A stretch of 64,000 nucleotides of DNA from Candidatus Enteromonas sp. (GCA_034171505.1 JAXFGC010000004.1:15269-79268), one strand, 5' to 3'; shown: positions 2,997-22,327, counted from the first letter of the stretch. Numbers and translations are program-made. Notes: generated from the sequence alone by a model not told the origin.

Positions 2997-3003
2997 TGGA
3001 TAT

Positions 3004-3612
3004 ATGTCTCGCTTCTTTTCCCACTTACGCCTCGTATTGCGTCATCGTCATCGTGTCATCGCCAACGCCTCCCATTGCGGGATTTTTTGGCATTCGCTCC
3101 GCCATGACTTGAGCAAGTTCTCCCCGACCGAGCTTTTTCCAAGCGCCCATTTTTATGCTGGGGACCATAGTCCCGTCTACGAGCAAAGATTGCGAAACGG
3201 ATATTTCTCCACGGTCTGCCAACACCACACCAAACGAAATAAGCATCATTGGGAATATTGGACGGACTTTTTCGCGGGACGGATCATCGTCAAATCCATG
3301 CCTTGGAAATACGCGATGGAATACGTCTGCGATATGCTTTCCGCCTCTTATTGCTACCACCCCGAAAACTTCAAAAGAGAGACCCCGTTGGCTTATTTTC
3401 GGCATTATCGTCCTGCGTATCACATGACCGAACGCACCGCGACCTTCATTGAGTGGTGCTTAGAACGCTACGCGGAGATGGGCTTCGCGGGATTGAAGAA
3501 AAAGGACACGAAGAGGAAGTATGGGGAAATCGCCCTTTTGACCCCGGAAGTGGAGGTGGAAGAAGAGCTCCATCCCTTTGCCTCCTTGCCCGAAGTAAAA
3601 CCCGATATATAA
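3004..3612 (+). CDS. Hypothetical His/Trp/Cys-rich cytoplasmic protein
   Basis: Clean 202-aa ORF tightly packed between cobB and trkA, with coding-like codon usage. No family recognised. Confidence 0.45.
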   Translation: MSRFFSHLRLVLRHRHRVIANASHCGIFWHSLRHDLSKFSPTELFPSAHFYAGDHSPVYEQRLRNGYFSTVCQHHTKRNKHHWEYWTDFFAGRIIVKSMPWKYAMEYVCDMLSASYCYHPENFKRETPLAYFRHYRPAYHMTERTATFIEWCLERYAEMGFAGLKKKDTKRKYGEIALLTPEVEVEEELHPFASLPEVKPDI

Positions 3613-4043: not shown

Positions 4044-4765
4044 AAATCGTCGTTGCCGGCGGGGATTCTTCCGCCGAATTCATCGTTTCGATGTTTTCCG
4101 GCAAAGGAAACGAACTGGTCGTGGTCAATGGCGACCGCCAAATCGCCGAACTTTTGTTAAAGCGTTGCCGCGTCCCCGTAACCCATGGCGACCCCTCCCG
4201 GAAATACATCCTCGAGGAAGCGGGGGCGTATGATGCGGACGTCTTCATCTCCCTCTGCGCGAAAGACACGGACAACTTCGCCGTCTGCCTTTTGGCCAAG
4301 AAGGTCTTCAACGCCAAAAAGGTCATCTGTGTGGTCAATAACCCCAAAAACGTCGACCTGTATAAGGAACTTGGCATCGATTCGGTGCTTTCCTCCACCT
4401 ACTTGCTCGCGGAGTCCATCCAAAGCGAATCCTCCGTCGAGTCCTTGGTCAAAACCCTTTCCATCGATAACAACAAAATCGCCGTCACGGAGTTTACGGT
4501 CTTAAGCAAACACCGCGTCGCCCACAAAAAGATTCGCGACATCAAATTCCCGACCGCGATCGCATCCATCGCCGCCATCAAACGGAACTTCGAGGTCATC
4601 ATCCCCAACGGTGAAGTCGAACTCCTCCCGATGGACGTCCTCCTTTTCGTCTGCTCTCCCAAGAACGCTTCGAAAGTCACCTCTTTCTTGAAGAAAGAAG
4701 TGGATCCTTCCAGCTTGGGAGCCCTCGCGAAAGGAAAACGCCCCAGCAAGAAAAAGGAAGATTAA
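4040..4765 (+). CDS. ktrA: Trk/Ktr K+ uptake peripheral subunit (TrkA-N plus TrkA-C)
   Basis: MKIVVAGGDSSAEFIV.. Rossmann region followed by a TrkA-C-like C-terminal part. Confidence 0.75.
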   Translation: MKIVVAGGDSSAEFIVSMFSGKGNELVVVNGDRQIAELLLKRCRVPVTHGDPSRKYILEEAGAYDADVFISLCAKDTDNFAVCLLAKKVFNAKKVICVVNNPKNVDLYKELGIDSVLSSTYLLAESIQSESSVESLVKTLSIDNNKIAVTEFTVLSKHRVAHKKIRDIKFPTAIASIAAIKRNFEVIIPNGEVELLPMDVLLFVCSPKNASKVTSFLKKEVDPSSLGALAKGKRPSKKKED

Positions 4766-4768
4766 CCC

Positions 4769-6484
4769 ATGAAAAAAGAAGTGTCCGGGGTCAGAATGGT
4801 TTTGGGATACTTCGGTATTTTCCTCGTGCTCGTGGGCATCATCACGGCCGTGCCGATGGTCATGATGGTGTATCCCGGGGAGAGCAAATGCTATATTGAC
4901 TTCCTCATTCCCGTGACCATCGACATCGTCCTGGGACTCATTCTTTATTTTGTTTTCCTTTGTGGGCGAAAGCGCGCGAAGTTCTTGCGCCACCAAGATT
5001 CCGTCTTGCTCGTGGCCGTATGGCTCGCCGCGATCGTCTCGGGTGCCGCCCCGATGTTCATCGCGGGCATTCGAGGGGAAATGGAGATGACCTTCAGCGA
5101 GGCCATCTTCGAAACCACCTCCGCGTATTCGACGACCGGATTAAACGTCTTCAAGGATTTCTTGGATTCCCCGGACGCCTTTTGTCCCCATGTATTCACC
5201 TTTTTACGGTCCTGGATGCAGTTCATTGGGGGCGTCGGATTCGTCCTTATCCTTGCCTCCATCTTAGGGGGGAACACCTCCATGAGCCTCTACCAAGGGG
5301 AGGGGCACAACGACCGAATCCTCGCTTCATTACGGAAAACGGCCCAAGTGATTCTGGGTATTTATAGTGCGTATATGGTGGTGGGCGCGTTGGCCCTCTT
5401 CTTAAGCGGGTTGCCCTTATTTGACGCATTTAACATCTCCATGTGTGCCCTTTCGGGCGGGGGACTCTCCCTCCGTTCCTCGAATATCGCTTTCTACGAA
5501 GCTTATGAAGGGGAGATTCTCAATTACCACTTTGAAAACGGCGTGAAGGTCATGGAAGTCGGGAACGGGGCTTTCTTCCCCGTCAACTTCGTGGCGATTG
5601 AGATCATCATGATGGTCCTCGTCACCTTAAGCGCGGTCAGTTTTGTCCTCCATACCTTCGTCTTGACCGGGAAATGGAAGAAGTTCTTGCTGGATGAAGA
5701 AACCCGATTCGGGATAATCTCTTTCTTCCTCCTTTTCGCCTTCTCTTATGGTGGATACTTAACGGTTGCCTTATCCGCGACGAGCGTAGATACCGAGGAC
5801 CTTGGGAAAGCCGCGATGGATTGCGCTTTCTACATCGTCGGAAGCGCCACGACGAGCGGATTCTCCAACACGGATTTGCCTCGTTTCCTCTCCTTGGGGG
5901 AACCCCTCTTCTTCGCCTCGATCCTCGCGATGTTCATGGGTGGTGGAGTTGGCTCCACGGGCGGTGGTATGAAGCAATACCGCGTCGTTACCTGCCTGAA
6001 ATCCCTCTATTATTCCCTCCGTTACCGCTTCTTAAGCGCCCACTCGTTCCGTCCGAAGACCATCTACCGTTATGGCAAGATGCAGGAACTCGACGACGAC
6101 ACGGTTTCGGAAGCTTATCATTACGGCCTTCTCTTCCTCGCCATGGTGGTCATCTCCGTCTTGATTGGGTGCATCGCCCCCAATGGCGACGAACCCTATA
6201 CCCAGATGGATTTGCCTTCCGTTCTCTATAACGTCGTGAGCGCATCCTCCAACACGGGATATGGCGTCAGCGATTTCCTCGCTTACCGACGGATCTTCGG
6301 CGCCTCCTCTTGGGGATATAACCTGACCTTGTGGGTCTTGACCATCGACATGTTCCTCGGACGTTTGGAGATCATCCCCTTGTTCTACGCCTTAAGCAAC
6401 ATACCCAAAGAAATCAAATACCGTGCGAGCCTCCGCAAAGCCGAGCGCAGCGGAATCCTCGCCGAGAAAGGAGCGGAATCATGA
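4769..6484 (+). CDS. trkH: Trk/Ktr-family K+ transporter membrane subunit
   Basis: 571 aa, polytopic, with repeated M1-P-M2 selectivity-filter-like segments (..STTGLN.., ..TSGFS.., ..NTGYG..). Confidence 0.85.
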   Translation: MKKEVSGVRMVLGYFGIFLVLVGIITAVPMVMMVYPGESKCYIDFLIPVTIDIVLGLILYFVFLCGRKRAKFLRHQDSVLLVAVWLAAIVSGAAPMFIAGIRGEMEMTFSEAIFETTSAYSTTGLNVFKDFLDSPDAFCPHVFTFLRSWMQFIGGVGFVLILASILGGNTSMSLYQGEGHNDRILASLRKTAQVILGIYSAYMVVGALALFLSGLPLFDAFNISMCALSGGGLSLRSSNIAFYEAYEGEILNYHFENGVKVMEVGNGAFFPVNFVAIEIIMMVLVTLSAVSFVLHTFVLTGKWKKFLLDEETRFGIISFFLLFAFSYGGYLTVALSATSVDTEDLGKAAMDCAFYIVGSATTSGFSNTDLPRFLSLGEPLFFASILAMFMGGGVGSTGGGMKQYRVVTCLKSLYYSLRYRFLSAHSFRPKTIYRYGKMQELDDDTVSEAYHYGLLFLAMVVISVLIGCIAPNGDEPYTQMDLPSVLYNVVSASSNTGYGVSDFLAYRRIFGASSWGYNLTLWVLTIDMFLGRLEIIPLFYALSNIPKEIKYRASLRKAERSGILAEKGAES

Positions 6485-7008: not shown

Positions 7009-7082
7009 AGGGGCATGGTTCAATGGTAGAACAGCGGTCTCCAAAACCGTTAATGAGGGTTCGATTCCTTCTGCCCCTGCCA
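7009..7082 (+). tRNA. trnW: tRNA-Trp (anticodon CCA)
   Basis: Cloverleaf folds by hand: acceptor AGGGGCA/TGCCCCT, D-stem GTTC/GAAC, anticodon stem GCGGT/ACCGT with loop CTCCAAA, T-arm GAGGG-TTCGATT-CCTTC, discriminator G and an encoded CCA. Confidence 0.9.
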
Positions 7083-7095
7083 TCGATAAACTATT

Positions 7096-7132
7096 GCATT
7101 TTGCACCACCAAACCGGGCAAAATGCTTTTTT
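7096..7132 (+). terminator. Rho-independent terminator after tRNA-Trp
   Basis: gcattttgc ... gcaaaatgc is a 9-bp stem, followed by TTTTTT. Confidence 0.6.
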
Positions 7133-7408
7133 ACAACCATATTTTGACCGCCTTTATCAATTCTAAGCGGGTCTAGGGGAGCGGACTGCCGCTAACGGGA
7201 AACGGAAAGTGGAAACAGATTATGTGATTGATCTATCTTTCATACGTGAAAGGCTTTGAAGACAGCGAGAAAAGATACATCATAGCAATAGAAAAAGGCA
7301 TTTTCCCGATGGGAACGATGGAGTCGTCGATAACAAGCTTTTGGATAGAAGGTTTGAGATTGCGTGAAATAGCTCCCTGAATCAATTGGTAGAGATTTCA
7401 ACAAAAAA

Positions 7409-7624
7409 GTGGGACGTGCAATAATCGTGGCAAGAAAAGGGGCGTTCGAGATAAGACAAGAGGTTGCTGAAATCATAGGAATCTGTCAAGAAACGCTCAA
7501 GGTATACGAGCAAGGAACAAGAACTCTACCATTTGATGTTTTCTATAAATCGGTTCAGTTCTTAGGATGGTTGTGGTTATTTCGCTTCGGTGTTAAAAGT
7601 AGCAATAACGTAATTGTTATGTAA
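7409..7624 (+). CDS. Small XRE-family (Cro/CI-like) HTH regulator
   Basis: ..RQEVAEIIGICQETLKVYEQGTRTLPFDVFYKSVQFLG fits the HTH_XRE pattern. Sits in an AT-rich accessory region. Confidence 0.4.
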   Translation: MGRAIIVARKGAFEIRQEVAEIIGICQETLKVYEQGTRTLPFDVFYKSVQFLGWLWLFRFGVKSSNNVIVM

Positions 7625-8299
7625 TAATATAGTTGTCAAAAGGGAAACCTCTTGATAGATATGGTCTGAGGGTAAGACCTAATAAAGAAATCCCAAACGA
7701 AGTTGCTTGGTTATTCCAAGCCTTTTTTATATATGGCAAAACTTGTTGAACTGAGAAAATTATCGGCTCTGTAACTTCTAGCGTGGTTTCATGTGGTTTC
7801 TGAAAATAAATCGCCGAAAACTGTAAACTCGATGTGGGGGTTCCCGAAGGCGGTTCAGGAGTGTGACCTTTATCCGTTGATTGGACCCTATTTTGTCCCA
7901 ATGCAGTTAACGGTCGATCGGAGCGGCCCCTCGGTCCGGCCGAAAACACCGTCGCCAATTTCAAGGAAAGCAAAAATGCGTTAGAATCCATGTAGGTCTC
8001 CTTTCGTTAGTTATGTGACCAACAAAATCATAACAAAGGAGGCCGTTTTTATTGGCAAAAACAGGCCAAAACTGCAACCGACAATGGGGGATGCGAAAAA
8101 TTCATACCACATTAGAAGCAACAGAGGTTTTCATTTCTTGTTCACATTCGGGGTATGTTCGGGACATTTTCATCAACGAATGTCTTGAATTGATTCGACG
8201 GCGGCAGGAGAGAAGGATGACTTACCGGACGAACTATTTCGTTTCACCGCGGTAAAGTGATCTAAATTTTTGACGCCGGATAAGATGCGTAATTATTGA

Positions 8300-8539
8300 T
8301 ATGATAAGATAAATGATAAAATAAATGATAAGATAAATGATAAGATAAATGCCATTGATGAAAAGATCATTTTCGAGATAAGAAAGAACAAATACGTAAC
8401 GATTTCTGAGCTAGCGACAACGCTTGGCAAATCGGAACAAACCATCTATCGACACATTAAATCTTTGGTGGCGAAGGGACTTGTTCGAAGAATGGAATCA
8501 AGAAAATCAGGCTATTGGGAAATCCTAGGGAATGATTGA
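8300..8539 (+). pseudogene. Winged-helix DNA-binding protein ORF lacking any in-frame ATG/GTG/TTG start
   Basis: The frame reads YDKINDKINDKINDKINAIDEKIIFEIRKNKYVTISELATTLGKSEQTIYRHIKSLVAKGLVRRMESRKSGYWEILGND*. The wHTH core is intact. The frame opens directly after a TGA at 8297 with no canonical start codon. Confidence 0.4.
8301..8348. repeat. 12-bp tandem repeat atgataagataa, four copies (one variant atgataaaataa)
   Basis: Direct reading at 8301-8348. In frame 0 each unit is a 3-codon mini-ORF (MIR*/MIK*). In the wHTH frame it encodes (DKIN)n. Confidence 0.85.
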
Positions 8540-8879
8540 TTCTATTTCCGTTCCATCTTTCCCGCGGACGAACCTTTGAATTCTCAATGAAATACAAGGA
8601 CGATAGAGGTATTCGGCATCTCACGTCATTTGATGGGCTATGTCGGTAAAAATCCTTCTACACGAATAATGAACGAAGCATGTCTTTATGCCTCTATAAA
8701 TAAAGGGAAGATGATTCGGTTCTATTGAGATGTTTTGGGGTTTGAAACCAAAAGAAGACGAATCCACGAATAACGTCCATTTGGTGAAAGACCATACTTT
8801 GTTTTTGCTTTATGGCCGTAAGGACTTCGAGAATCTTACGAGCAAAAGATAAGAATACCTTTTCGGAGTCAACGCCCAT

Positions 8880-9043
8880 TCGGAGATGGCCCTTTACGTG
8901 GATGCTTAGAGGTGAATAAAGAGTTCAAAAACGCCGCCGAAAAAGGGGTTACTCCGCTTCTAGAACCCACCACCGAGCCCTGGGGGCAACGGACCTGCCT
9001 TATCGCCGATCCCGAGGGCAATATCATTGAAATCGGCTCCTGA
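8880..9043 (+). pseudogene. C-terminal remnant of a glyoxalase/VOC-family protein
   Basis: ..LEVNKEFKNAAEKGVTPLLEPTTEPWGQRTCLIADPEGNIIEIGS* matches the VOC C-terminal beta-alpha-beta module. Upstream, ALYVDA* sits in another frame, so the gene is frameshifted or truncated. No M-start ORF of 60 aa or more exists here. Confidence 0.4.
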
Positions 9044-9236
9044 AATAAGCCTTACGAAGAAAAGGATTTGGAATCCTAATTATCTATATTCCTATATACG
9101 CGCGCATAAACGATATAGAGATAAGATCCTTTGACTCTTTCGCGTCCATTTTCCCAAAAGGAAATGGAAATATGAGAAATTGTTGATGGGAACCTCGATT
9201 TCGTTGTATCGTGGGCGTAACAAAGGAGGGATTTTT

Positions 9237-11090
9237 ATGAAGAAAACTCCCATCTCCCGTGCCTTCATCGCCATCGCCAGTTTCTTTATTGCGATGCCGC
9301 TTGTGGCTTGCGCATCGGACTTACCGAGTGGCATTTCAAGCGTGGAAGACACCCACATCAGCAGTTTCGTGGAGGACGTTTCGTATTCGGTATCCATTGA
9401 AGGAGGCGTCGAAGAAGGAACGACCGTAAAAGCCGACGAACTAACGGACGGCCAAAGGGAAGCGGCGCTTGACCTCATCGCCGAAGAAAACGTCGATACC
9501 GGTTCGGACACCTATGTCTTTGATATTTCCCTTTTCAAGGATGGAGTGGAAGTCCAACCGAGCGGCAAAGTCAAAGTGACCATCGCCATCCCGGGGATCG
9601 ACCTCGCGAAATCCTATACCGTCTTCCACATCAAAGACGGCGGGACCTATGAGAAAATCACCCCGGTCGTGGAAGAAGGCAAAGTCACATTTGAGACGAG
9701 CGGGTTTTCCACGTTTATCATCGCCCCGAACGCGGGAGGAAGCGAGGAAAGCTCCTCGAGCCTACCCCCGAAAGCCGAAGTCCTCGTCAGCATCAACATC
9801 CTCCCCCTCGCCGAATGCGGGACCCTCAAGGTCAACGGGGTCGTGATGGAAGGGGCCGCGAGCTACAAGACGACCCATTACGAGGGCGATGTCCTCACCG
9901 TCGAAGCCCTCCCAGCTTCCGGCAAACATTTCAAGCATTGGGCGGACGACAATGTCATCTCCAAGGACATCGTCTACGAATTCACCGTCGGGACGAAGGA
10001 CATCGCCTTCAGCGCCGTTTTCACCAAAGGGCATGAAGTCTCCTATATCGACATCACCGAAGAAGGGCACACTGAGAAATGCGATTATTGCTCCTATTCG
10101 GTCACCGTCCCCCACACCTATTCCATCGAAACGATCGAAGAAGAGGCCACTTGCTTGAAAGAAGGCTGGAAAGAGCTTGCCTGCGTTTGCGGGAAAGCCG
10201 TTTCTGAATCCATCCCTTTGGCCGACCACGCCTGGGAAGATGGGGCTTGTTCCGTTTGCGGGGAAATCCAGAATTACCTCCGTTGTGACATCACCGGCGT
10301 CGCCAACCCCGAGGGCGCTTATATCAAAATGGGCAAAATCTTCGCGGACAAAGTCTCAGACAGGAGCGTTTTGGCGAATTTGGAGATGATGCGCGACAAC
10401 CCGTGGCTTTCAAACTTCGAAGGATGGACCCCATTTGACTTCGGCGCCGGGGACACCGATTCCACCTATTACCGCGATTTCGTTTACCAAAACCAACGTT
10501 ACCGCTGCGTCTGCATCAAATCCTACCGTTTGGACAACGACGGCAAGCAATCCGCGAATTACTACGATTATTCTGAGACGTATTGGTTCTCGGAAAGAAG
10601 CGCCATGTGGCGGATCATCCGGGTCAACGATGGCAAAGCGTATTTGGTTTCCAAGAACATTTGGATTTCCCAGCGCTTCGCCGAATCCGACACCGGGGAA
10701 CTCACCTACCAAAATAGCTGGATCCGTTCTTGGATCCAAACTTGGCAATACGAATTGCTGAATGAGTCCCAAAGAGCCCTCTTGCAGCCAAACGAGGACT
10801 GCTTTGGAGACAAAATCTTCATCCCGAGCTCAGAGGAAATCAGCATCAACAACCCCATCGGATACGGCGGATTCCGTTATCCGGCTTGCCTTGGGGCTTT
10901 CTATGACAGCCTCCAAGGATACGGGGAAACTTATGGCCCGTATTGGCTCCGCGACCTTATCTCCGTCGGGGAGGATGGCAAGAATTACGTCGACTGCGTC
11001 AGTTCTCGTCCCCCTTTTGATGAAACGGCCAAATACTTAGCCAACAAGACTTATGTTGGGGTCGTTCCGGGCATCATCATCCAGCTGTAA
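9237..11090 (+). CDS. Surface lipoprotein with Cys-rich repeats and a DUF6273-like C-terminal domain
   Basis: AGGAGG lies 8 nt before ATG 9237. Signal peptide plus lipobox MKKTPISRAFIAIASFFIAMPLVAC. Four C-x-x-C pairs (CDYC..CLKE..CVCG..CSVCG). The C-terminal region (..IFIPSSEEI..YWLRD..VGVVPGIIIQL) recalls DUF6273. Confidence 0.75.
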   Translation: MKKTPISRAFIAIASFFIAMPLVACASDLPSGISSVEDTHISSFVEDVSYSVSIEGGVEEGTTVKADELTDGQREAALDLIAEENVDTGSDTYVFDISLFKDGVEVQPSGKVKVTIAIPGIDLAKSYTVFHIKDGGTYEKITPVVEEGKVTFETSGFSTFIIAPNAGGSEESSSSLPPKAEVLVSINILPLAECGTLKVNGVVMEGAASYKTTHYEGDVLTVEALPASGKHFKHWADDNVISKDIVYEFTVGTKDIAFSAVFTKGHEVSYIDITEEGHTEKCDYCSYSVTVPHTYSIETIEEEATCLKEGWKELACVCGKAVSESIPLADHAWEDGACSVCGEIQNYLRCDITGVANPEGAYIKMGKIFADKVSDRSVLANLEMMRDNPWLSNFEGWTPFDFGAGDTDSTYYRDFVYQNQRYRCVCIKSYRLDNDGKQSANYYDYSETYWFSERSAMWRIIRVNDGKAYLVSKNIWISQRFAESDTGELTYQNSWIRSWIQTWQYELLNESQRALLQPNEDCFGDKIFIPSSEEISINNPIGYGGFRYPACLGAFYDSLQGYGETYGPYWLRDLISVGEDGKNYVDCVSSRPPFDETAKYLANKTYVGVVPGIIIQL

Positions 11091-11197
11091 TCGTTAACAC
11101 ATCGAATTGGGCCGAGGCATTCGGCCCATTTCTTTTCTTTGCTGCTTGCCCGCCCAAAAGTTCTAAATATTAAGGATTACATCAGGTACTTGGCTAT

Positions 11198-11464
11198 TTG
11201 CTTTATCCTCGGGAAAAGAAGGTGGTAGACCTTTCTTTGCTTTCGGAATTTGATCCATACCTCACGGATTACGTCTATGGGAAACTCTATTCTGAACTTT
11301 CCAATCACGAGCAAACGATATTGCGTTCATTCCAAACTAGCGGGCCCGTCAAGATATCCGATTCGGTCCATCGATGCGGCTTAAACAACAAGTCCATTGG
11401 GGTTTACCGCGATCGTTTGATCAAGAAAAGGGTCGTATTCGCCTCATTTGACTTCCGCGTTTGA
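11198..11464 (+). CDS. Possible HTH DNA-binding fragment (sigma-70 region-4/LuxR-like)
   Basis: LSNHEQTILRSFQTSGPVKISDSVHRCGLNNKSIGVYRDRLIKK resembles an HTH. Short and isolated, so it may be a remnant. Confidence 0.3.
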   Translation: MLYPREKKVVDLSLLSEFDPYLTDYVYGKLYSELSNHEQTILRSFQTSGPVKISDSVHRCGLNNKSIGVYRDRLIKKRVVFASFDFRV

Positions 11465-11523
11465 ACGATTCGAAATAGCCTAGGAAATAAAAATGCGGGT
11501 ACCCGCAAAAAAATTTTCCTAGA

Positions 11524-11929
11524 AAGGCAAACGATGGAAATTCGAAGAGACGCATACCTAAATAAGCTAATCGCCAAAAAGAACAATCGGTTGATCAAAA
11601 TCCGAAAGCATAACGAAATCGATTTCGTCTGCAACCGCTGATCCAAACGTTATTGCATCCAATCCGCTTTGCAGCTTCATGACGAGAATAAAAAGCGCCA
11701 AGAAGAACGGCCGTTATTGTTAACCAAAGACGGATTCAAGCAGGTCATTATCACAAAGGACGCCTTGACCCCTCTTTATAACGAAGAGGGAATCCTCGTT
11801 ATGAATGTGTTTGATTTCCCGATGGATGAGGCGAGCCTTGATTATGGAACGGCGAATCTCGGAAGACGAGACACATGGTCAAATGTTTTTAATGAATTCA
11901 CATTTATACTAAATTTATACAAACTGTGA
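11524..11929 (+). pseudogene. Degraded AAA-ATPase (DUF4143-type) gene
   Basis: MEIRRDAYLNKLIAKKNNRLIKI.. is the characteristic N-terminus but stops after 34 aa. The C-terminal-like piece (..ILVMNVFDF..) is in a separate ORF at 11669..11929. The Walker region is missing. Confidence 0.35.
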
Positions 11930-12000
11930 GAATTCACTCTACTTTTATAGACAAGGCTTCCAAATTGAGCTTGGGGGTCAGAATGGAAAGAATTACTCAA

Positions 12001-12057
12001 CTTGTACAGGACAAGTACTGGTCAAGTAGTGAACAAGTCACTGGACAAGTAAAAACC
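12001..12057. repeat. Direct repeat copy 1 (cttgtacaggacaagtactgGtcaagtagtgaAcaagtCactggacaagtaaaa)
   Basis: About 55-bp unit containing the palindromes TGTACA and AGTACT. The second copy is at 12142-12221. Confidence 0.7.
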
Positions 12058-12141
12058 ATTATATTTGAGAAATTATTTCTAATTTGGCATCAAAAAGGCA
12101 AAAAATTAAAGTTTTTCGACAAAAATGAAAGCAAACAAGGA

Positions 12142-12221
12142 ACTTGTACAGGACAAGTACTGATCAAGTAGTGATCAAGTAGTGATCAAGTAGTGGACAA
12201 GTAACTGGACAAGTAAAACCC
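12142..12221. repeat. Direct repeat copy 2, with an internal triplication of the 11-bp unit gatcaagtagt
   Basis: acttgtacaggacaagtactgatcaagtagtgatcaagtagtgatcaagtagtggacaagtaactggacaagtaaaacc. Confidence 0.7.
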
Positions 12222-12373
12222 CTTTTTTCATATAAGGGCGGACATGACTGACTTTTCGCGAATAAAAGGAAAGAAGCCGTTTTCCGAAACCGTAAAGGCG
12301 GCGTAACAAAATTACCCGTGGACGTTTTTCGATGGCCTATATCCTAGCCGCATAACGGGAAAGGGAAACAATC

Positions 12374-12660
12374 ATGAAAACAAAACCTACCAAATTCGCC
12401 GCTTTCCTGCTTTTGTCTTTGCCGCTCGCCTCTTGCGCGGCGGGCGGTGAAGTCCCTGATGGCGGTACCCCCCTCTTCAGAATCTAGCAGCGCCCCGGCG
12501 GTGCGGCTCGTCCCGACCTTCGACTCGTTCGGGGAAGGACTCGCGTTAAGCGCCGCCATCGCCCATTATTACGATTTCGGAATGGGGCGAGTATAACAGC
12601 GGCCGCGTCGACCCAGATGTCGTATACAATGAAGCAAGGTGGGCAATTCCTTTGTTCTAC
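12374..12660 (+). pseudogene. Frameshifted lipoprotein gene remnant
   Basis: AAGGGA RBS, then MKTKPTKFAAFLLLSLPLASCAAGGEVPDGGTPLFRI*. The continuation SSSAPAVRLVPTFDSFGEGLALSAAIAHYYDFGMGRV* is in another frame. Confidence 0.45.
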
Positions 12661-12862
12661 CAAGAAACATAATTCCTCCTTTTAGATGAAAAATTATTCA
12701 CTGAAAAATAATTCATCTTAATTAAATATTGTTTTTATCGCTTCACAACGAATGAAAAGGAGATATGGGGAAACCCGATTCATCCGTTTGCAATCAATGG
12801 AAAACGGTTTTTGGATTACGACCCGAAATCAGGTATTTTCCGTTTGGGGCGGAAACGTCGCT

Positions 12863-14041
12863 TTATTTTGTGAGGTATTTCTGAAGGTCTTTGAGGTATC
12901 GGTCTTGGGATAGGTGTTCGAAATAATAATCGCGCCCATTCCGCCCGAATTCGGAATAATCCCCTTCGGCGAACTCGGTGATGATGCGGGCCAAACCGGC
13001 GGAATCTTCCGCTTCCACAACCATCCCAGCCCCGCATTCGCGGATGAAATTCGCACAGGATCCGGAAATCGCCCCGATGATGGGTTTGCCGCAGGCTAGG
13101 TAACTTTGGACTTTTCCTGGAATGGTCATCCTCGCGTAAGGCTTGTCTTCCAAAGTGACGAGCATCGCGTCGGCGAGGGAATAGAACTCCACCATTTTCT
13201 CTAACGGCTGCCGCCCGTGGAATATGACGTTGTCTAAACCGTAGTCGGCGACGAGTTTCTTCAGCTTCGGGCAAGCGGTCCCATCCCCGATGAAATGGAA
13301 GAGGAAACGCTTGTCGCCCTTTAGGATTCTCGCGGCTTCCACGATCGTGTCGCAGGATTGGGCGAGGCCGATGTTGCTCGCGAACATCAAATCGATGACC
13401 CCGTTGTCGACTTTCGGAAAAAGGGTTTGCTCGAAAATCGGGTCGGCGCATTGGGGCAGGTAATGGATGCTCAAATCCTTGCATCCCGGAAGGGAATGGA
13501 TGGCCTCTTTATGCTCTTTGGTCGATACCAAAATCTCGTCGCATCCGGAATAAATCTTCGCGGAGACTTTCTCGTAGTGCTTGTAAATCCAAGATTTCGG
13601 TGAAATCCCGCCCGCCAGAAGGCTCCCTGGCCAAAGGTCCATTTCGTACATCACGCAACGAACTTTGTTCTTTTTCGCGTATTTGATTCCCGGAATCGCC
13701 CCAAGTATCGGGGAGAGTTCGTTGATGAGAACGACGTCGAAATCCTTGTCGAGCTTTTTGGCGAGCTTCGAGGCAAAGAAAGGGAAGGAGTAGTAATTGA
13801 GCAATCGGAAAAAGACGTTGCGCCTGCGCCCAATCAATTTGGCTCGTACGATCTTGACCCCGTTTCGTTCCTGGACCCTGTTTTTGCCATGGCGGTATTC
13901 GGGGTAAATGGTCCCCTGGGGGTAATTGGGGAGCCCCGTGAGGACGGTGACGTCGTGGCCCCGCTCCACCAGCGTCTCGGCAATGTCGGTGATGCGAAAG
14001 TTTTCGGGCCAGTAGAATTGAGAGACGACGAGGATTTTCAT
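12863..14041 (-). CDS. Glycosyltransferase family 4 (WcaI-like)
   Basis: MKILVVSQFYWPENFRITDIAETLVERGHDVTVLTGLPNYPQG.. and C-terminal ..FIGDG..E(x7)E GT4 features. The track start is TTG at 14047; ATG 14041 is preferred. Confidence 0.8.
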   Translation of the reverse strand: MKILVVSQFYWPENFRITDIAETLVERGHDVTVLTGLPNYPQGTIYPEYRHGKNRVQERNGVKIVRAKLIGRRRNVFFRLLNYYSFPFFASKLAKKLDKDFDVVLINELSPILGAIPGIKYAKKNKVRCVMYEMDLWPGSLLAGGISPKSWIYKHYEKVSAKIYSGCDEILVSTKEHKEAIHSLPGCKDLSIHYLPQCADPIFEQTLFPKVDNGVIDLMFASNIGLAQSCDTIVEAARILKGDKRFLFHFIGDGTACPKLKKLVADYGLDNVIFHGRQPLEKMVEFYSLADAMLVTLEDKPYARMTIPGKVQSYLACGKPIIGAISGSCANFIRECGAGMVVEAEDSAGLARIITEFAEGDYSEFGRNGRDYYFEHLSQDRYLKDLQKYLTK

Positions 14042-14136
14042 AGCCAAAGAAGATTGTTATTACTATGGCACAAAACGCGCGTATGCGAAATGTGGGGAAG
14101 CGATTTTCCCATACTTTTTTCGCTTTCGGGAGTCCT

Positions 14137-16038
14137 TTATCGGGAATAGGAGGTTTTAAACTCCTCCCACGTCTTTTGGAGGAATTCCCCCAAAGCCTTG
14201 TCTTCGCAATAAATGAAACAGCCTTTGATGCCGCGGGTGAGGAGGATTTTATAGGCGTTTCGGATGAACGTCTCCGCTTTTTTGAGGTTCTCGGGGGTGC
14301 GACGGAATCCCGCGTTCATGTAGGTGTGGTCGCTTTCCGCGTGGTTCTCCACGTGGACGCGGGGTTTGGAAGAGGCGGCATCGAACATCAAATCTTTTCC
14401 GATGATGACCCCGATGTAATCGAATTCCACCCCTTGGGCAGAGAAGACGCATCCGCATTCATCGATGGAGTCCATTCGGGTCGCCCAAGTCTTGGTGTCC
14501 CTGTTCCAAGGCAATCCAACAGGCGTGACCACGGGATCGGAATTGTGTTCCCATTCGTAGCAATAGCCAGCGACGACTCTCGCTTTCTCTTCCCCGTTAT
14601 TGTGGCGTAAGACCTCTTGGTACATTTCTTTGGCATCCTCGTAAAAACGGAGGTCGTATTGGAAATGGAGGTGTTGGGTGTCGGGCTTTTTGCCGTGAAT
14701 CACGTAGTCCACGAAGGCGATGAACCCATCGCTTCCGTTGCAACGGAACTGGGTCTCCAAGGTGAATTCGGGTTTTTCGATAATCTCCGAGTGGTGACGT
14801 TCCGCGGATTCCTTAATGGCGGATATCGTTCCCGCATCCTTGTAGGTGACGAATTGTCCTTCGTCAATGAAGAACACGCTCACGAGGGCGGAATGGATGA
14901 TTTCGTCGAGGATTACTTTCCCGGCGACCGCCCCTTGGGTGGATTTGGTCAGTCGATGGGCCTCGTCGACCAGGACGCACTCGATTTCGTTTTCTTCTTT
15001 CGCGGTGGCGCTTTTGACCCAATTTCCGGAATAGGCGAGCAAAGAATCCACGCCTTTTGCGTCTTTATTTTGGCGGATTGCTTCCGCAAAAGCGTGCCGT
15101 ACGGAGGAGTTTTGCGCGAGATAAAAGGCTTTCCCGAGCTTTTTACAATAGATGGTTCCTAAGGCCTTTAACGCAACCAACGACTTCCCGGTTCCAGGTC
15201 CTCCGTTAATGATAAACGTGGCTTTTTTACGGGTGTGAATGCATTCTTGAATCTTCGCCATGATCGCGTTAAACACCACTTGTTGGGCGTCGAACAAGGC
15301 GAGGGAATCGTTATGGAGGATGAGGGAATTGACGTTATCCACCAACTGTTTGGTGGGGGCAATCGTGCTCGAATCCAAGCATTCGAAAATGGTCCCATCA
15401 TCGGGCTTCCTTAAGTAGGTCGTCACGAAATCCCGGAGGCGGCGGTTGTCCGTTTTGAGGAACGTTGGGGAAACGTCGAGCAACCCTTGGAAACGGGAAT
15501 CCGTTAAGGGATTGCCCTTTTCATCAAGGAAGTTATGGAGGAAAGAACAGGTGTGGATGTGGATGGGGTTATCCGCGACCACCGTATAGAAGTTCTCGAA
15601 CAATCTCCGATACCCCATCGCTTGTTCGGAGGGGTGAATGGTTTCCCGGACACACCCTTTGGCCACCAAAGCATCGAGATAAGTGATGTTCTCCGAGTTT
15701 TGGATTAAGGAGACGTTCCCGTTGGACCATTGCTTGAGTTCGATGATCACGAGGTTTTGGATACCCTCCTCATCGTATCCCGAAAGCATGAAGTCGATTC
15801 GGCATTTGTTGGAGGCGAAGATCACGTATTCAATCGCGCAGTAAAGATTTTGGTCGATGCGTCCCTCTCCAAACACGTTGGAGACCCGTTCCAAGGATTG
15901 GGAAAAGGCCCGGTCCTGACTGTCGCTGACGCCGATACCTTTCGCCAGGAGGTTTTGTCGCAGGATGGCGTTTAACACCCCGCGGTCCACGTGATCATTA
16001 AAAGTCGATAGCCTTTCGCAATAAACGAGATCTCTCAT
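14137..16038 (-). CDS. DUF2075-family nuclease/SF1-like ATPase (Nhi-like, putative anti-phage defense protein)
   Basis: N-terminal PD-(D/E)xK-like block RIDFMLSGYDEEGIQNLVIIELKQW. P-loop FIINGGPGTGKSLVA. Walker B VLVDEAHR. C-terminal motif-VI-like VFSAQGVEFDYIGVII. Total 633 aa. Confidence 0.75.
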   Translation of the reverse strand: MRDLVYCERLSTFNDHVDRGVLNAILRQNLLAKGIGVSDSQDRAFSQSLERVSNVFGEGRIDQNLYCAIEYVIFASNKCRIDFMLSGYDEEGIQNLVIIELKQWSNGNVSLIQNSENITYLDALVAKGCVRETIHPSEQAMGYRRLFENFYTVVADNPIHIHTCSFLHNFLDEKGNPLTDSRFQGLLDVSPTFLKTDNRRLRDFVTTYLRKPDDGTIFECLDSSTIAPTKQLVDNVNSLILHNDSLALFDAQQVVFNAIMAKIQECIHTRKKATFIINGGPGTGKSLVALKALGTIYCKKLGKAFYLAQNSSVRHAFAEAIRQNKDAKGVDSLLAYSGNWVKSATAKEENEIECVLVDEAHRLTKSTQGAVAGKVILDEIIHSALVSVFFIDEGQFVTYKDAGTISAIKESAERHHSEIIEKPEFTLETQFRCNGSDGFIAFVDYVIHGKKPDTQHLHFQYDLRFYEDAKEMYQEVLRHNNGEEKARVVAGYCYEWEHNSDPVVTPVGLPWNRDTKTWATRMDSIDECGCVFSAQGVEFDYIGVIIGKDLMFDAASSKPRVHVENHAESDHTYMNAGFRRTPENLKKAETFIRNAYKILLTRGIKGCFIYCEDKALGEFLQKTWEEFKTSYSR

Positions 16039-16200
16039 ATGCCCCTCAATCTAGAATCCAATCGTCTTGGATTCGATATAACACAAGTATAACACTTAAC
16101 TTGTTTTCTGTCGAAGAAATGGGGATTCTTGTGGATAAGAAAATGGGCAGGTCTAGCGCTTCCTGCCCTTATTCGAAATCGCGATTGGCTGGGGTGCCCC

Positions 16201-17247
16201 TTATTTTCGGTAATAGCGAATGCTGGAAGACTGCCCGATTTTGATGACTTTCCCGTCTTTTACCATTTTTGACAATACGAGTTCCACCGTTGAAGGCGAT
16301 ATGTCCGGTAGGATGTCGCAAACCTCTTTTTTCGAGATTGGCACGAGGGAATTGAGCACCGTGGCTTCGATCCTTCCGGCCTTATTGATTTTCTTGGAAT
16401 TGACCGTGGCGAACCGCTTATCGAGTTCCCGGTAGCAAGATAACAAAGTCATAAGGAAATTGGAGACAAAGAAAAAATAATCGTTTTTGTTTTCGTGCCA
16501 CCCAATGGAGGACTTCCGCAAGGCCTCATAATACAATCCCTTGTTCTTATTGATTTGTTCCTCGAAAGAAATGTATTTGCCGGCATCAAAGCCGTTCTTG
16601 TACAAAAGAAGCAAGGACAATAGTCTAGACATTCTGCCGTTTCCGTCGCTGAAAGGGTGGATGCACAAGAAATCGAGAATGACGCACGGGATTAAGAGAA
16701 GCGGATTGATTCCGGAATCATCCCGGGCATCCAAATACGCCAAAAGAAGCTGCCCCATCGCTTTTTCTGTTTCTGCTGCGGAAATCGGCTCAAAACGAAC
16801 GCGTCTTGTGCCGTCCGGACGAACCTCCATTATCACGTTATCATCGATTTTATAGTGGCCGGCAGCGTTTGGCTTCGATTGAAGCAGAAGGGTTTTGTGC
16901 AAATCCAAAATCGTCCTTTCGTCAAACGAAAGTCGATCGAATGCCCCGTGAATGAGATGGAGTGCATCTCGGTATCCGGCGATTTCTTGTTCGTTGTGAT
17001 TGAGGGGAGCGCTGTTCTCGTTGACGATTGCGCGAATTCTTTCATCGGTTGTGAGAATTCCCTCGATGGCGTTGCTCCCCCTTACGGATTGCACTATGGC
17101 GATCTTTTCAAGCTCTGAATAGACGTTGGCGAAATCTTTCTTCCGAGAGGCGTCTCTTTCCTTTAACGAATAGATGCCCGCGAATAGGTCAACGAAAGTC
17201 GCGGGGACGTTTCCGAATTTTAGAAAAGAGTAATCGAATGTTTTCAT
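16201..17247 (-). CDS. fic: Fic-family protein (class II, with N-terminal inhibitory motif and C-terminal wHTH)
   Basis: Canonical Fic motif HPFSDGNGRMSRLL. The (S/T)xxxE(G/N) inhibitory motif is present as SNAIEG around aa 60. C-terminal ..KKEVCDILPDISPSTVELVLSKMVKDGKVIK is wHTH-like. Confidence 0.85.
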   Translation of the reverse strand: MKTFDYSFLKFGNVPATFVDLFAGIYSLKERDASRKKDFANVYSELEKIAIVQSVRGSNAIEGILTTDERIRAIVNENSAPLNHNEQEIAGYRDALHLIHGAFDRLSFDERTILDLHKTLLLQSKPNAAGHYKIDDNVIMEVRPDGTRRVRFEPISAAETEKAMGQLLLAYLDARDDSGINPLLLIPCVILDFLCIHPFSDGNGRMSRLLSLLLLYKNGFDAGKYISFEEQINKNKGLYYEALRKSSIGWHENKNDYFFFVSNFLMTLLSCYRELDKRFATVNSKKINKAGRIEATVLNSLVPISKKEVCDILPDISPSTVELVLSKMVKDGKVIKIGQSSSIRYYRK

Positions 17248-17267
17248 AAAGGTGGTTGCCCTTTCTT

Positions 17268-17351
17268 CTCTGCATAAATTTTATGATATTTTATGCAAAG
17301 ATTCAATTTGTTTGTGCAATCCTCTGCATAATTTTTAGGATATTTTATGCA
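17268..17351. promoter_or_regulatory. Two 30-bp direct repeats, each bounded by the 8-bp inverted repeat TGCATAAA/TTTATGCA, in the fic promoter
   Basis: 17268-17297 is ctctgcataaattttatgatattttatgca. 17322-17351 is ctctgcataatttttaggatattttatgca (2 mismatches). They lie 20-105 bp upstream of the fic start on the minus strand. Confidence 0.6.
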
Positions 17352-17566: not shown

Positions 17567-18436
17567 TTATCGGACGGGCACGAATTCGATGTATCCGCGT
17601 TTTCCGATGGGTTCAAGCTGGATTCGCGGGTTAGAGGGGTCAAATTCCACCCCGAATAGGCTGGGGTCGCAATCTTTTTCCGCCTTCCACACTTCTTGAA
17701 TCGCCGCTTCGAAGTCCTCTTCCTCGAAGGGCTCCCCTTGGAACATTAGGTATTTACACTCGGGTAGTTCGATGAGGTCGAATCCTTCGGGGATGGGCCC
17801 GGAGTAGTCTAAGGGGACTTCCGCCCCTTGGACGTATACGCTCGTGCCTTCCGTCACGTATTGTTCGGGCAGCCAAAGGCAAACGGGTTCTCCCGAAATG
17901 GATTTGATGGAGGCGAGGATGCCCCAAACATCGCATCCGACTTCTTGGCAATAGGTCCAGTATTCGGTCGCTTGGATGCCCCGTTTGATGATGACTTTCC
18001 GTTCCGGCTTGTTGACCAAGGACAAATGAACCGGTTGGTTTTTCATTTCTTTTTTCTCCTTTCTTGGGTATTGGGTCACGATGTCGTAGGAGATAAACAA
18101 AGGAATCGGGAAGGGGGACAAGGCGTATTCCTTGGGGTTGCAGCCGTATTCCTTGTAAAAGGCGCGAGTGAAACCGTCCACGCTTTCAAAGCCCCAATTG
18201 GAGGCGACGTCGATGATCTTGACCTCGTTGTCCCTTAGTTCCAAGGCAGCCATCTTGAGCTTGGTTTTTCGGACGAACTCCGCGGGTGTCACGCCCAAAT
18301 ACTCAAGGAAAATGCGCCTGGAATACCAAAGGGAAAAGCAAGATACGGAAGACAAGTCGCGCAGGGAAATGGGTTCGCGGATGTGCGATAGGATGTAACG
18401 CTGCATCTTGGAAACGGCTTCGAGCTTTTGATCCAC
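17567..18436 (-). CDS. AraC-family transcriptional regulator with a GyrI-like effector-binding C-terminal domain
   Basis: N-terminal HTH_AraC (..LRDLSSVSCFSLWYSRRIFLEYLGVTPAEFVRKTKLKMAALEL..). The C-terminal half is GyrI-like. Confidence 0.75.
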   Translation of the reverse strand: MDQKLEAVSKMQRYILSHIREPISLRDLSSVSCFSLWYSRRIFLEYLGVTPAEFVRKTKLKMAALELRDNEVKIIDVASNWGFESVDGFTRAFYKEYGCNPKEYALSPFPIPLFISYDIVTQYPRKEKKEMKNQPVHLSLVNKPERKVIIKRGIQATEYWTYCQEVGCDVWGILASIKSISGEPVCLWLPEQYVTEGTSVYVQGAEVPLDYSGPIPEGFDLIELPECKYLMFQGEPFEEEDFEAAIQEVWKAEKDCDPSLFGVEFDPSNPRIQLEPIGKRGYIEFVPVR

Positions 18437-19924: not shown

Positions 19925-22327
19925 TTAGGGGGTGACCAACGCGGCCGCGTTGATGACGGATTGGAGGGTCATCTTGGTGAGAGAATCGGGATAAGAATTG
20001 TCATCAATTAAGCCCGCGGCGATGAGCTGGTAGATGGTCGCGTTTTGGATGGCGGTGCGGGTGGCGCTGCCTTCAAGGTCCACGACGCGGGTGGTGGATT
20101 CGGTGTAGACGATACCGCGTCCGTTACTCGAATCGACGGTGACGTCGTAGGCGAACAAGGACCAGACGCTCGAGTTGGTGGAAATGTAATAGACTTCACC
20201 GGTCGCGGAGGGATCGTAAGTGTAGACCGTTTTGCCGTCTCCGTTGACGGATTTGACGTATTTGTCGTGACGGCTGGAGTTGTCGGTGGTGGAGAAGACG
20301 TTTCCGCCGTAAACCTTATACAAAGTGAGGTCGTTGACGGTCGATCCGAGTTCGCCGAGGGTGCAATCCGAATCGATGAGGGCGTCCACAATCGCGGAGG
20401 GGTTCGAAGGATCCTTGGTCAAGACGGTGGAAATCTTGATTTTCGTCATGTCGAAGGAATTCAGAGATCCGACGGTAATCTTTTCGGGAGTATCGATCGC
20501 TGGGTCGTTAATGGCATCGAGCAAGCAATCGTAGAGGCCTTCGTTTCCCGTGTAAGGAAGGACGGTGGTGAGCCCGATGTTATCGGTATTGATGCCAGTG
20601 GAGAGATTGCTCAAGGTGATGTTCTCGTAGGTCAAACCGGTCATCTGCTCGAGCATGGTACGGAGGGTGCTATCCGCGGCAAGGTTGAGGACGGTCGAGA
20701 GTTTGATGGAGTCGGTGGAGAAGGTGGAAAGATCGGTGAGGGTGATTTCTTCCCAGGATTTGCCGGTGCCTTGGCTCAAGATGTCCTTGATTTCCGCGGA
20801 GGGGCTCGTCATGACAGTGGCTAAGTGGACGAGGTCGATATTGAAGGCGGTTTCGCCGGAGAGTTGGCCAAGGGTGATTTGGGCGAACGAGGCGTCGTAA
20901 TCGCTGGTATCTCCACCCGTGGCTTCAACGAGGACTTTGACGACGATCGAGTTCGGGTTCGAAATGATGCTGTTGAGGTGGACGTTGGTTAAATTGATGT
21001 CTTTGATGTCCGCGACGGTGATTTCATTCCAGGTTTTCGGGGCACGGAGGTCTTCGAGGACGTCTTTGAGGGCACCCGCTTCGCTCTCCTTGATGATGGA
21101 ACTGATCGGGGTGGATTCCAAATCCGCGTCATTGATGTGACCCAAGGTTAAGGTTTCCCAAGTGACGGATGGATCCGAGTCTTTGCACGCTCCAACGAGG
21201 ACGTCGTAGAGCATTTCGTTGTCCACGGTTTTATCGCCGAGGATGGATTTGAGTTTGATGCGATCCATGTCGATGTTTTTGATATCGCCAAGGGTCAAAT
21301 CTTCGGGGCTTCCTTCGGATTTGCCGGAGGCGTCAAAGAGAACATCGTAGGTCGCTTTGTTGGAAGCATAATCGCCGAGAATGACGGTGAGTTTGACGTT
21401 GTCGGGGTTCAAACCATCGAGGTCACCGACGGTGATGTTGTCCTTCGTGAGGCCTTTCGCGGGATCGGTCGCGCCGAGAATGATGTCGTACATGTTTTCG
21501 TTACCGGCGTAGGGGAAGACGTCGATGAGTCGAATGCTTTTCGCGATTTCATTGGCGTTGATCGAACCAAGGTCGGCGATTGTGTGGTCGCCCAAGATGG
21601 TGCGGATGATACTGTCGCTTTCAACCGGGGTGATGGATTCGATGAGGTTGATGGCTTTGTTCTGGACCAAACGGGTTCCGATGATTTGGAAGAGGTCGAG
21701 GACATTTACATCCTTCAAAGCCGGGTAGTACCAATCTTTATCCGCGGCTTCCGGGACCATCATACCCTCTTTGTCGAAGACGCGAGCATAGACGTTATTG
21801 CCTCCTTCCGAGGAGACGCAGTAGTAATAAAGTTCAGGGAGGAAAGAAGAAGAGGTCGGATCGACGGCTTCTTTTTGTTCGACGGTGAGCAAATCCCAGT
21901 TGTTCATGACGGAGATTTTGCCCAAATCACCGAGGGCGTCACCGAGTTCCAAAGAATTGATGGTCGCGGTGACTTGGATTGAACTCATAAGGACTTCGCC
22001 AACGTTGGAGAAATCGTTGAAACGGATGCCTTCGAGGGTTTCCCAATCGACCGTGAAGTATTTCTCGAGGTCGTTTTCTTCCATGACCTTTTTGAGCAAG
22101 TCGGTCACAAAGGGGACATCGCTGACGCCATAATTGCTGTAGTTGGTCAAAATGGAAAGAAGGCTTTGATTTTGCAGTTCCGGGGAAATGTAGTCGTCCT
22201 TGTTATCGACGTTGAAGTAGGTTCCAACGGGGACCACGCCGATGGCGACAAATCCGGCGACTCCGATGAGGATAAACGAGGATACAAATCCAAAGAGCCA
22301 CCAGAGGAAATTCTTTAATGCTTTCAT
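19925..22327 (-). CDS. Membrane-anchored surface protein built from ~10 degenerate ~40-aa repeats
   Basis: N-terminal TM anchor MKALKNFLWWLFGFVSSFILIGVAGFVAIGVV. Repeats share the pattern W-x-x-ITLGDL(x)n-I-x-L-x-(S/T)VL (WETLTLGHINDADL.., WNEITVADIKDINL.., WEEITLTDLSTFST.., YENITLSNLSTGIN.., PEKITVGSLNSFDM..). Confidence 0.7.
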   Translation of the reverse strand: MKALKNFLWWLFGFVSSFILIGVAGFVAIGVVPVGTYFNVDNKDDYISPELQNQSLLSILTNYSNYGVSDVPFVTDLLKKVMEENDLEKYFTVDWETLEGIRFNDFSNVGEVLMSSIQVTATINSLELGDALGDLGKISVMNNWDLLTVEQKEAVDPTSSSFLPELYYYCVSSEGGNNVYARVFDKEGMMVPEAADKDWYYPALKDVNVLDLFQIIGTRLVQNKAINLIESITPVESDSIIRTILGDHTIADLGSINANEIAKSIRLIDVFPYAGNENMYDIILGATDPAKGLTKDNITVGDLDGLNPDNVKLTVILGDYASNKATYDVLFDASGKSEGSPEDLTLGDIKNIDMDRIKLKSILGDKTVDNEMLYDVLVGACKDSDPSVTWETLTLGHINDADLESTPISSIIKESEAGALKDVLEDLRAPKTWNEITVADIKDINLTNVHLNSIISNPNSIVVKVLVEATGGDTSDYDASFAQITLGQLSGETAFNIDLVHLATVMTSPSAEIKDILSQGTGKSWEEITLTDLSTFSTDSIKLSTVLNLAADSTLRTMLEQMTGLTYENITLSNLSTGINTDNIGLTTVLPYTGNEGLYDCLLDAINDPAIDTPEKITVGSLNSFDMTKIKISTVLTKDPSNPSAIVDALIDSDCTLGELGSTVNDLTLYKVYGGNVFSTTDNSSRHDKYVKSVNGDGKTVYTYDPSATGEVYYISTNSSVWSLFAYDVTVDSSNGRGIVYTESTTRVVDLEGSATRTAIQNATIYQLIAAGLIDDNSYPDSLTKMTLQSVINAAALVTP

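Follow-up and report, generated by a model that had tools for sequence, protein, structure and literature searches.

The window analysed here is a stretch of 64,000 nucleotides from a metagenome-assembled genome (MAG) of Candidatus Enteromonas sp. (GCA_034171505.1, JAXFGC010000004.1:15269-79268), a member of a poorly studied lineage of gut Bacilli; all positions are counted from its first letter. On its minus strand lie, in the direction of transcription, the genes of a class II Fic protein (16201-17247, 348 aa), of an Nhi-like nuclease-helicase of the DUF2075/PF09848 family (14137-16038, 633 aa) and of a GT4 glycosyltransferase (12863-14041, 392 aa). An earlier reading of this DNA, made from the sequence alone and called the sequence-only reading below, had proposed the three genes as a candidate defence or toxin island. 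We describe the proteins, their relatives in other genomes, and the relation of the three genes to each other.

The gene layout given by the sequence-only reading holds in nearly all parts. In our listing of open reading frames (ORFs) the three genes are intact at their claimed places, and translation of the exact coordinates recovers every motif that had been quoted for the DUF2075 and Fic proteins. The gap of 162 bp between these two genes is confirmed (spacer 16039-16200), and so is the AraC regulator beside the locus, an AraC/Cass2-type gene on the minus strand (17567-18436) that is recognized by Pfam HTH_18 and by a weak Cass2 match. Only the claimed end at 17351 had to be given up: it is no ORF boundary; the Fic gene starts about 100 bp further downstream. 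The domain calls were right as well, namely DUF2075 with a PD-(D/E)xK part and a P-loop ATPase of helicase superfamily 1 (SF1), class II Fic, and GT4. Exact matches of the first two proteins are deposited at NCBI from a Candidatus Enteromonas sp. MAG as MDY5440684.1 (DUF2075 domain-containing protein) and MDY5440685.1 (Fic family protein).

The 633-aa protein matches PF09848 (DUF2075), currently named SLFN-g3_helicase in Pfam, over the entire profile (1-354 of 354, residues 272-613, E 1.3e-78, 265 bits vs a cutoff of 24). According to Pfam, Foldseek and the translated motifs, this part of the chain (14200-15225, minus strand) is an SF1B-type helicase/ATPase domain. It contains the Walker A motif GGPGTGKS (residues 279-286, 15181-15204), the Walker B motif DEAH (residues 358-361, 14956-14967; read as VDEAH with the preceding residue in the translation) and the later helicase motifs QFRCNGS, SAQGVEFDYIGVII and LLTRGIKGC. 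The N-terminal residues 1-245 (15304-16038, minus strand) form a PD-(D/E)xK nuclease domain, in which D82 (15793-15795) and E100-L-K102 (ELK, 15733-15741) make up a D...ExK nuclease signature. It is followed by Q139xxxY143, which we take to be the motif typical of RecB-family nucleases.

Across an alignment of 66 homologues, Walker A and Walker B are invariant, and the N-terminal residues E70, R80, D82, E100, K102, W104, H135, P136, Q139, and Y143 do not vary either; the catalytic residues are thus all invariant and intact in the window protein. Its AlphaFold (AF2) model is confident, with a predicted local distance difference test (pLDDT) of 86 and a predicted template modelling score (pTM) of 0.81, and a Foldseek search of the PDB returns RecD2, RecD, Dna2, nsp13, Upf1, and SLFN11/14 with E-values from 7e-11 to 1e-7. 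At the sequence level, the only PDB matches of the full-length profile are the P-loop region of HelD and, spuriously, spermidine synthases, and a profile of the N-terminal domain finds no match there. Because the invariant D...ExK and QxxxY residues occur together with SF1B fold neighbours, the two-domain architecture of nuclease and ATPase is correct.

Homologues of this protein are numerous: thousands of full-length sequences of 615-640 aa were found, and an exhaustive library search at E <= 1e-30 yields 335 clusters of 50% identity, bacterial as well as archaeal. Their spread is patchy and includes Bacillota, Bacteroidota, Spirochaetota, Planctomycetota, Actinomycetota, and archaeal plasmids; some copies reside on viral contigs. 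We compared the neighbourhoods of 80 GTDB species-representative loci (L001-L080), whose pooled neighbours include PbeA, type IV mREase, GmrSD, Cas9, Cas3, HEC-06, KAP NTPases, and recombinases. Homologues of the close clade (46-58% identity) are found in defence islands, e.g., in L081 next to the BREX genes PglZ and BrxC, a PAPS-reductase/DUF4007 protein, an ADP-ribosylglycohydrolase, and SbcCD. A copy on a Priestia plasmid is flanked by a restriction endonuclease on one side and by a type I restriction-modification (R-M) system on the other, with an ABC-three-component protein also near. Because the contexts of the homologues vary so widely, there is no conserved housekeeping synteny that would unite all relatives. 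The scattered distribution and the varied contexts are what one expects of a mobile defence gene and not of a housekeeping gene with fixed synteny, and the defence role that the sequence-only reading had suggested for the DUF2075 protein is plausible in view of the homologues in defence islands.

Within this subfamily one neighbour recurs. A gene of about 110 aa with a PF12643 MazG-like domain adjoins DUF2075 in 52 of the 80 GTDB loci, in 51 of these on the same strand, with gaps mostly between about -50 and +30 bp; an example is L002 (3556-3888). The partner is present also in L088 (7672-7992), L081 (7560-7880), L189 (4498-4827), and L089 and on the Priestia plasmid. Among solved structures, it is closest to the pyrophosphatase 4qgp and the dCTP pyrophosphatase DCTPP1/RS21-C6, and no model of PADLOC v2 matches it. 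Our literature search found no description of a pairing of DUF2075 with a MazG-like gene; it brought up a single comparative-genomics paper on jumbo phages, which does not deal with this pairing in particular. The two genes together may represent an undescribed two-gene defence candidate. A hidden Markov model (HMM) built from 51 partner proteins detects no MazG-like gene throughout the 64-kb window. Standalone DUF2075 copies are common, since about 23 further loci with long flanks are devoid of the MazG-like gene as well. The copy in the window, like about 30% of the family, most likely functions without this partner.

The sequence-only reading had equated the protein with the Nhi immunity system of staphylococci. 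This is right for the architecture and does not extend to the sequence family. Nhi is the S. epidermidis protein SERP2475 (Bari et al., preprint 10.1101/776245), and its sequence was taken from the supplement of that preprint for our comparison. According to the preprint, immunity is lost in nuclease and in helicase mutants (constructs D72A/E85A and T213A/G214A/K215A, respectively), and a C-terminal domain resembling glyoxalase/bleomycin-resistance proteins is reported. Both proteins are single chains in which an N-terminal PD-(D/E)xK domain (D...ExK) precedes a DUF2075/SF1 helicase that carries Walker A and B, and by inspection of the motifs D72/E85 and T213-K215 of Nhi correspond to D82/E100 and T283/G284/K285 of the window protein. 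Homologues near defence genes are a further common trait.

In contrast, the sequences themselves are far apart. BLASTP aligns Nhi with the window protein only over 149 aa around Walker A-B (E 6e-5), a profile comparison by hhalign reaches 91.5% probability over 85 columns only, and the PADLOC Nhi model scores 39.7 bits at model positions 186-365 of 470 only. Pfam gives no match for the C-terminal glyoxalase/bleomycin-resistance-like domain in the window protein. Finally, the window subfamily usually has the MazG-like operon partner, whereas the available parts of the preprint mention none for Nhi (10.1101/776245). By predicted build, the window protein is an Nhi-type protein, and its sequence places it outside the Nhi sequence family.

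A second point of reference is the Nhi-like protein of B. cereus FSL H8-0482 (system SG141), a verified single-gene defence, and Nhi-like proteins as a group share organization, not sequence, with Nhi (Millman et al. 2022, 10.1101/2022.05.11.491447). It combines a predicted N-terminal nuclease with DUF2075 in the same manner and aligns colinearly with the window protein between the nuclease motifs (EY...RxD...IExK) and Walker B, but differs from it in belonging to another subfamily, with 20% identity and E 6e-8 over 332 aa (first 399 of 611 residues compared). The best PADLOC matches of the window protein are PDC-S41 and AbiO, yet both are partial (50 and 38 bits). Relatives of PDC-S41 match both ends of members of the window family; however, the window protein is not PDC-S41, because true PDC-S41 proteins score far above it, at E 5e-188. 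A distant second DUF2075 paralogue of this PADLOC PDC-S41 type (E down to 5e-188) stands in tandem with a family member in 4-5 loci, e.g., in L025 at 4210-5994. The SF1B helicase fold is furthermore shared with Dna2, RecD2, and the Schlafen group III helicases, which differ in their N-terminal domain and biological setting and whose solved structures show no match at the sequence level. Dna2 likewise joins a PD-(D/E)xK nuclease to an SF1B helicase.

Upstream of the DUF2075 gene, the 348-aa protein matches PF02661 (Fic) with E 6.9e-14. Its translation contains the catalytic motif H197PFSDGNGRMSR208 (HPFSDGNGRMSR, 16624-16659), which agrees with the canonical HxFx(D/E)GNGRxxR, and the inhibitory motif S58-N-A-I-E62-G63 (SNAIEG, 17059-17076), which precedes H197 by 139 residues; a C-terminal extension reaches up to residue ~345. 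Class II Fic proteins are defined by an N-terminal (S/T)xxxE(G/N) inhibitory motif in the same chain (PMC12249575), and since the window protein carries S58xxxE62G63 at its N-terminus, it belongs to class II. The closest solved structure is 8uqu_A in the PDB (E 1e-71, residues 43-345), an uncharacterised 'Fido domain-containing protein', on which a literature search for 8UQU found nothing.

The window Fic and SoFic have in common the class II layout, the N-terminal inhibitory helix, the canonical catalytic motif, and a C-terminal domain (Millman 2022; PMC12249575), and the PADLOC SoFic model matches nearly end to end (54-348 of 361, 110 bits). The NCBIfam SoFic equivalog NF046030 gives 42.6 bits vs a cutoff of 550, and with the verified SoFic of E. 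coli H397 only a catalytic core of 71 aa can be aligned, at 32% identity. A further difference concerns AS1, the small ORF or antitoxin described with SoFic (PMC12249575): downstream of the window Fic, no AS1-like ORF confined to the spacer was found. Judged by these motifs and profiles, the protein appears SoFic-like in build.

For the Fic family we sampled 80 loci centred on close homologues (59-81% identity), 43 of which provide at least 2 kb of downstream sequence. None of these 80 loci reveals a recurrent or conserved neighbour of Fic; the neighbours include AlbA_2, AEP-TOTE helicase, serine recombinase, JAB/ThiF, phage portal, and HipA-like genes. Homologues of about 64% identity also occur on the IMG/VR contigs L174-L179, which are 100-190 kb long and classed as viral. 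This Fic subfamily is very abundant and well conserved, and its members move as lone genes in the company of mobile elements and conflict systems.

The most direct evidence on the relation of the genes comes from the same locus in another Candidatus Enteromonas genome, L085. It has the order tail of the gene of an 800-aa protein, AraC, DUF2075, at 72-73% nucleotide identity to the window; the DUF2075 orthologue is intact, 635 aa long and 72% identical as a protein. A Fic gene, a GT4 gene, and a TMEM164-like gene are all missing from this locus. The AraC genes are joined by an alignment of L085 613-1464 to window 18435-17583 (72% nucleotide identity). In L085 this gene (612-1480, corresponding to window 17567-18436) is split into a 193-aa HTH_18 ORF and a 102-aa Cass2 ORF, owing to either a frameshift or a mistake in the assembly. 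The 102-aa ORF was considered as a hidden MazG gene and rejected, as it is the Cass2 half of the split AraC. Downstream of DUF2075, the place held by GT4 in the window is taken in L085 by an AlbA_2/HATPase_c_4/TrmB gene.

The adjacency counts point in the same direction. No adjacent DUF2075 gene was found at any of the 80 Fic-centred loci, and the sole case with DUF2075 nearby is L125, where a MazG-like gene and DUF2075 lie about 4.2 kb away. Conversely, one of the 80 DUF2075-centred loci has an adjacent Fic gene (L042). A GT4 homologue near DUF2075 or Fic occurs in none of the 80 DUF2075 and 80 Fic loci. The complete trio was seen only in contigs that are at least 99% identical; neither L085 nor any of the 160 related loci has it. 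A cooperation of Fic and DUF2075, which the sequence-only reading had raised, is thus unsupported in view of the Fic-less orthologue and these counts, and the trio does not hold as a unit, GT4 accompanying DUF2075 in the same species only.

The spacer between Fic and DUF2075 contains signals of its own. A terminator-like hairpin (16135-16168, minus strand) lies just past the Fic stop codon and consists of GGGCAGG, a 10-nt loop and CCTGCCC, followed by the T-rich ATTTTCTTAT; it is present in both the minimum free energy and the centroid fold, with a z-score of only -1.2 for the whole 81-nt stretch. Further downstream, a promoter-like site for DUF2075 (16086-16114, minus strand) is formed by TCGACA, 17 nt and TATACT with an upstream TG, 10/12 in a consensus scan; after it come a GAGGGG ribosome-binding site and the ATG of DUF2075. 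The spacer site counts as a consensus match only, and promoter-like sites in the region do not exceed the number expected from shuffling. Fic probably has its own terminator and DUF2075 its own promoter; the signals are weak and consistent with separate transcription units.

The GT4 gene exceeds the gathering score of PF13439, PF13579, PF00534, and PF13692 and is weakly WcaI-like, with 111 bits for the WcaI subfamily model vs a cutoff of 276. Formally its ORF spans 12863-14047 (394 aa from TTG); the true start is likely the ATG at 14041, as called in the near-identical contig L086, which gives the 392 aa stated above. As a component of a system, GT4 is rejected because related DUF2075 and Fic loci have no GT4 homologue and L085 lacks the gene. 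It is a bystander that forms no conserved unit with Fic or DUF2075.

The wider surroundings are variable. The stretch from tRNA-Trp (7009-7082, plus strand) to metK (22914) differs between the two Candidatus Enteromonas genomes and includes ORF-poor DNA of low GC content. The region 11100-12860, which had been described as decayed, is ORF-poor and has short ORFs only, two of which were searched against Pfam and gave nothing. After tRNA-Trp, about 2 kb (7009-9100) are ORF-poor as well, with a GC content of 0.41-0.43; an Rfam scan of the whole window returned tRNA only and no family in the ORF-poor 7.1-9.1 kb. An island integrated at the tRNA is unsupported, because the window has no second copy of the 3' end of tRNA-Trp and no integrase among its annotated ORFs. 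'Variable accessory region' is a fair label; the 'typical defence-island context' of the sequence-only reading is too strong for the window, where the neighbours AraC, a TMEM164-like membrane protein, the 800-aa protein, and metK are not defence genes.

Several other features of the window were recorded. The 800-aa protein (19925-22327) has an N-terminal membrane segment and no Pfam match, and its gene is conserved in L085. A 636-aa protein (9180-11090) has a divergent InlB B-repeat and is possibly a lipoprotein, while a 970-aa protein (27958-30870) combines Endonuclease_1, Big_2, and pilus-N-like domains and probably represents a nuclease that is secreted or displayed on the cell surface. At 2280-3612, a DUF5662 gene comes directly after a gene of the Sir2 family. 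Between 39000 and 42000 the GC content rises to 0.60-0.64 vs about 0.52 elsewhere, with long ORFs overlapping on both strands.

Taking together the gene structures, motifs, folds, family distributions, neighbourhood statistics, and the Fic-less orthologous locus, we favour, with a probability of roughly 65%, the reading that the locus consists of two independent single-gene accessory modules, both candidates for defence, which are neighbours by chance and stand with an unrelated GT4 gene in a variable stretch. A number of observations weigh against it, and they are discussed here along with the explanations that would make use of them. Fic and DUF2075 might form a real two-gene system, in which Fic replaces the MazG-like partner, e.g., as a sensor or toxin arm or as a regulator of the nuclease-helicase; we consider this quite improbable. 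It would account for two genes that lie closely spaced on the same strand with Fic upstream and that are kept as a pair in all five strain-level contigs of the species. It would also account for L042, a distant Lachnospiraceae MAG, which repeats order and strand with a Fic of 43% and a DUF2075 protein of 34% identity at a gap of 75 bp, and which, like the window, lacks the MazG-like gene carried by most relatives. Moreover, Fic and DUF2075 could be co-transcribed, since the terminator and the promoter are weak consensus matches. A broader form of the idea, to which we assign a very low probability, sees the subfamily as the core of a modular, undescribed defence system with MazG, into which Fic would have been swapped as a functional accessory arm in the window and, independently, in L042. 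Against a two-gene system stands, however, the 72% orthologue, which keeps its DUF2075 gene intact at the same locus without Fic. In addition, no close Fic homologue has an adjacent DUF2075 gene, and the approximately 23 other MazG-less DUF2075 loci with long flanks are free of Fic. L042 itself, with its AbiH and DUF3800 genes, counts as a defence island, a setting in which unrelated defence genes gather in any case, and one extra case in 80 is about the level of chance for a common gene family. The hairpin and the promoter-like site in the spacer also speak for separation.

The second group of objections concerns the functions. The DUF2075 protein could be a host DNA-maintenance nuclease-helicase that acts in repair or replication restart like Dna2, RecD or AddAB and is variably distributed without serving in immunity. 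This we regard as unlikely, and still it can draw on several findings: RecD2, RecD, and Dna2 as best structural matches, the QxxxY motif presumed to be of RecB type, and the synteny in two Candidatus Enteromonas species. The synteny of DUF2075 with AraC in the second of these means that the gene is passed on stably in the genus. A homologue of 54% identity (L087) is located among housekeeping genes, between hrcA-dnaK-dnaJ and valS, and, Fic aside, no recognised defence gene lies in the neighbourhood in the window. Libraries of defence models give weak scores (PADLOC: PDC-S41 50, Nhi 40, AbiO 38 bits), the similarity to both verified proteins, Nhi and the B. cereus Nhi-like protein, is remote, and an immune role of the window protein and its close relatives is put forward by comparison. 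On the other hand, the family is distributed patchily and does not follow phylogeny, with copies on plasmids, archaeal replicons, and viral contigs. Its neighbourhood is hypervariable and abounds in R-M, BREX, Abi, GmrSD, and Cas genes, and in L087 a single gene has been inserted among the housekeeping genes. The same architecture is, furthermore, experimentally defensive in the Nhi-like protein (10.1101/2022.05.11.491447) and in Nhi (10.1101/776245). For Fic, a role other than anti-phage defence is a real possibility, to which we give clearly less than even odds: it might be an addiction module of mobile elements or a regulatory AMPylase, toxin-like or linked to transcription by a winged-helix tail. 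The short alignment to the verified SoFic, the equivalog score far below its cutoff, and the lack of an AS1-like small ORF downstream would fit such a role, as would close homologues beside recombinases, prophage genes, and HipA-like genes and on viral contigs. The nearly full-length match to the PADLOC SoFic model, the class II build with a canonical catalytic motif as in SoFic, and neighbours from conflict systems (AEP-TOTE, JAB/ThiF, AlbA_2) argue against it.

If the reading of two independent modules is followed, the anti-phage function, the substrates, and the transcription units that we infer would be as follows. The DUF2075 protein belongs, as a standalone copy, to a large subfamily of Nhi-type build that has spread horizontally. 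By analogy with Nhi, its ATP-driven helicase would load onto foreign DNA of phages or plasmids, or onto replication intermediates, and translocate; the nuclease would then cut the foreign DNA, such that accumulation of phage DNA is halted. Fic may have been inserted between AraC and DUF2075 in the lineage of the window, or lost from the sister lineage. The protein would act as a self-inhibited AMP-transferase, which AMPylates a cellular or phage target once the inhibitory glutamate is displaced.

The locus adds one uncharacterised nuclease-helicase of Nhi type and one Fic protein of SoFic type to the accessory genome of Candidatus Enteromonas. As members of already known kinds of defence genes, they are useful for annotation and unsurprising. 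More useful than the locus itself is a by-product at the level of the family, the coupling of DUF2075 with a MazG-like gene. If confirmed, it would constitute a two-gene defence candidate that ties the surveillance of the nucleotide pool to a nuclease-helicase, and MazG-less copies such as the one in the window would serve as natural controls.

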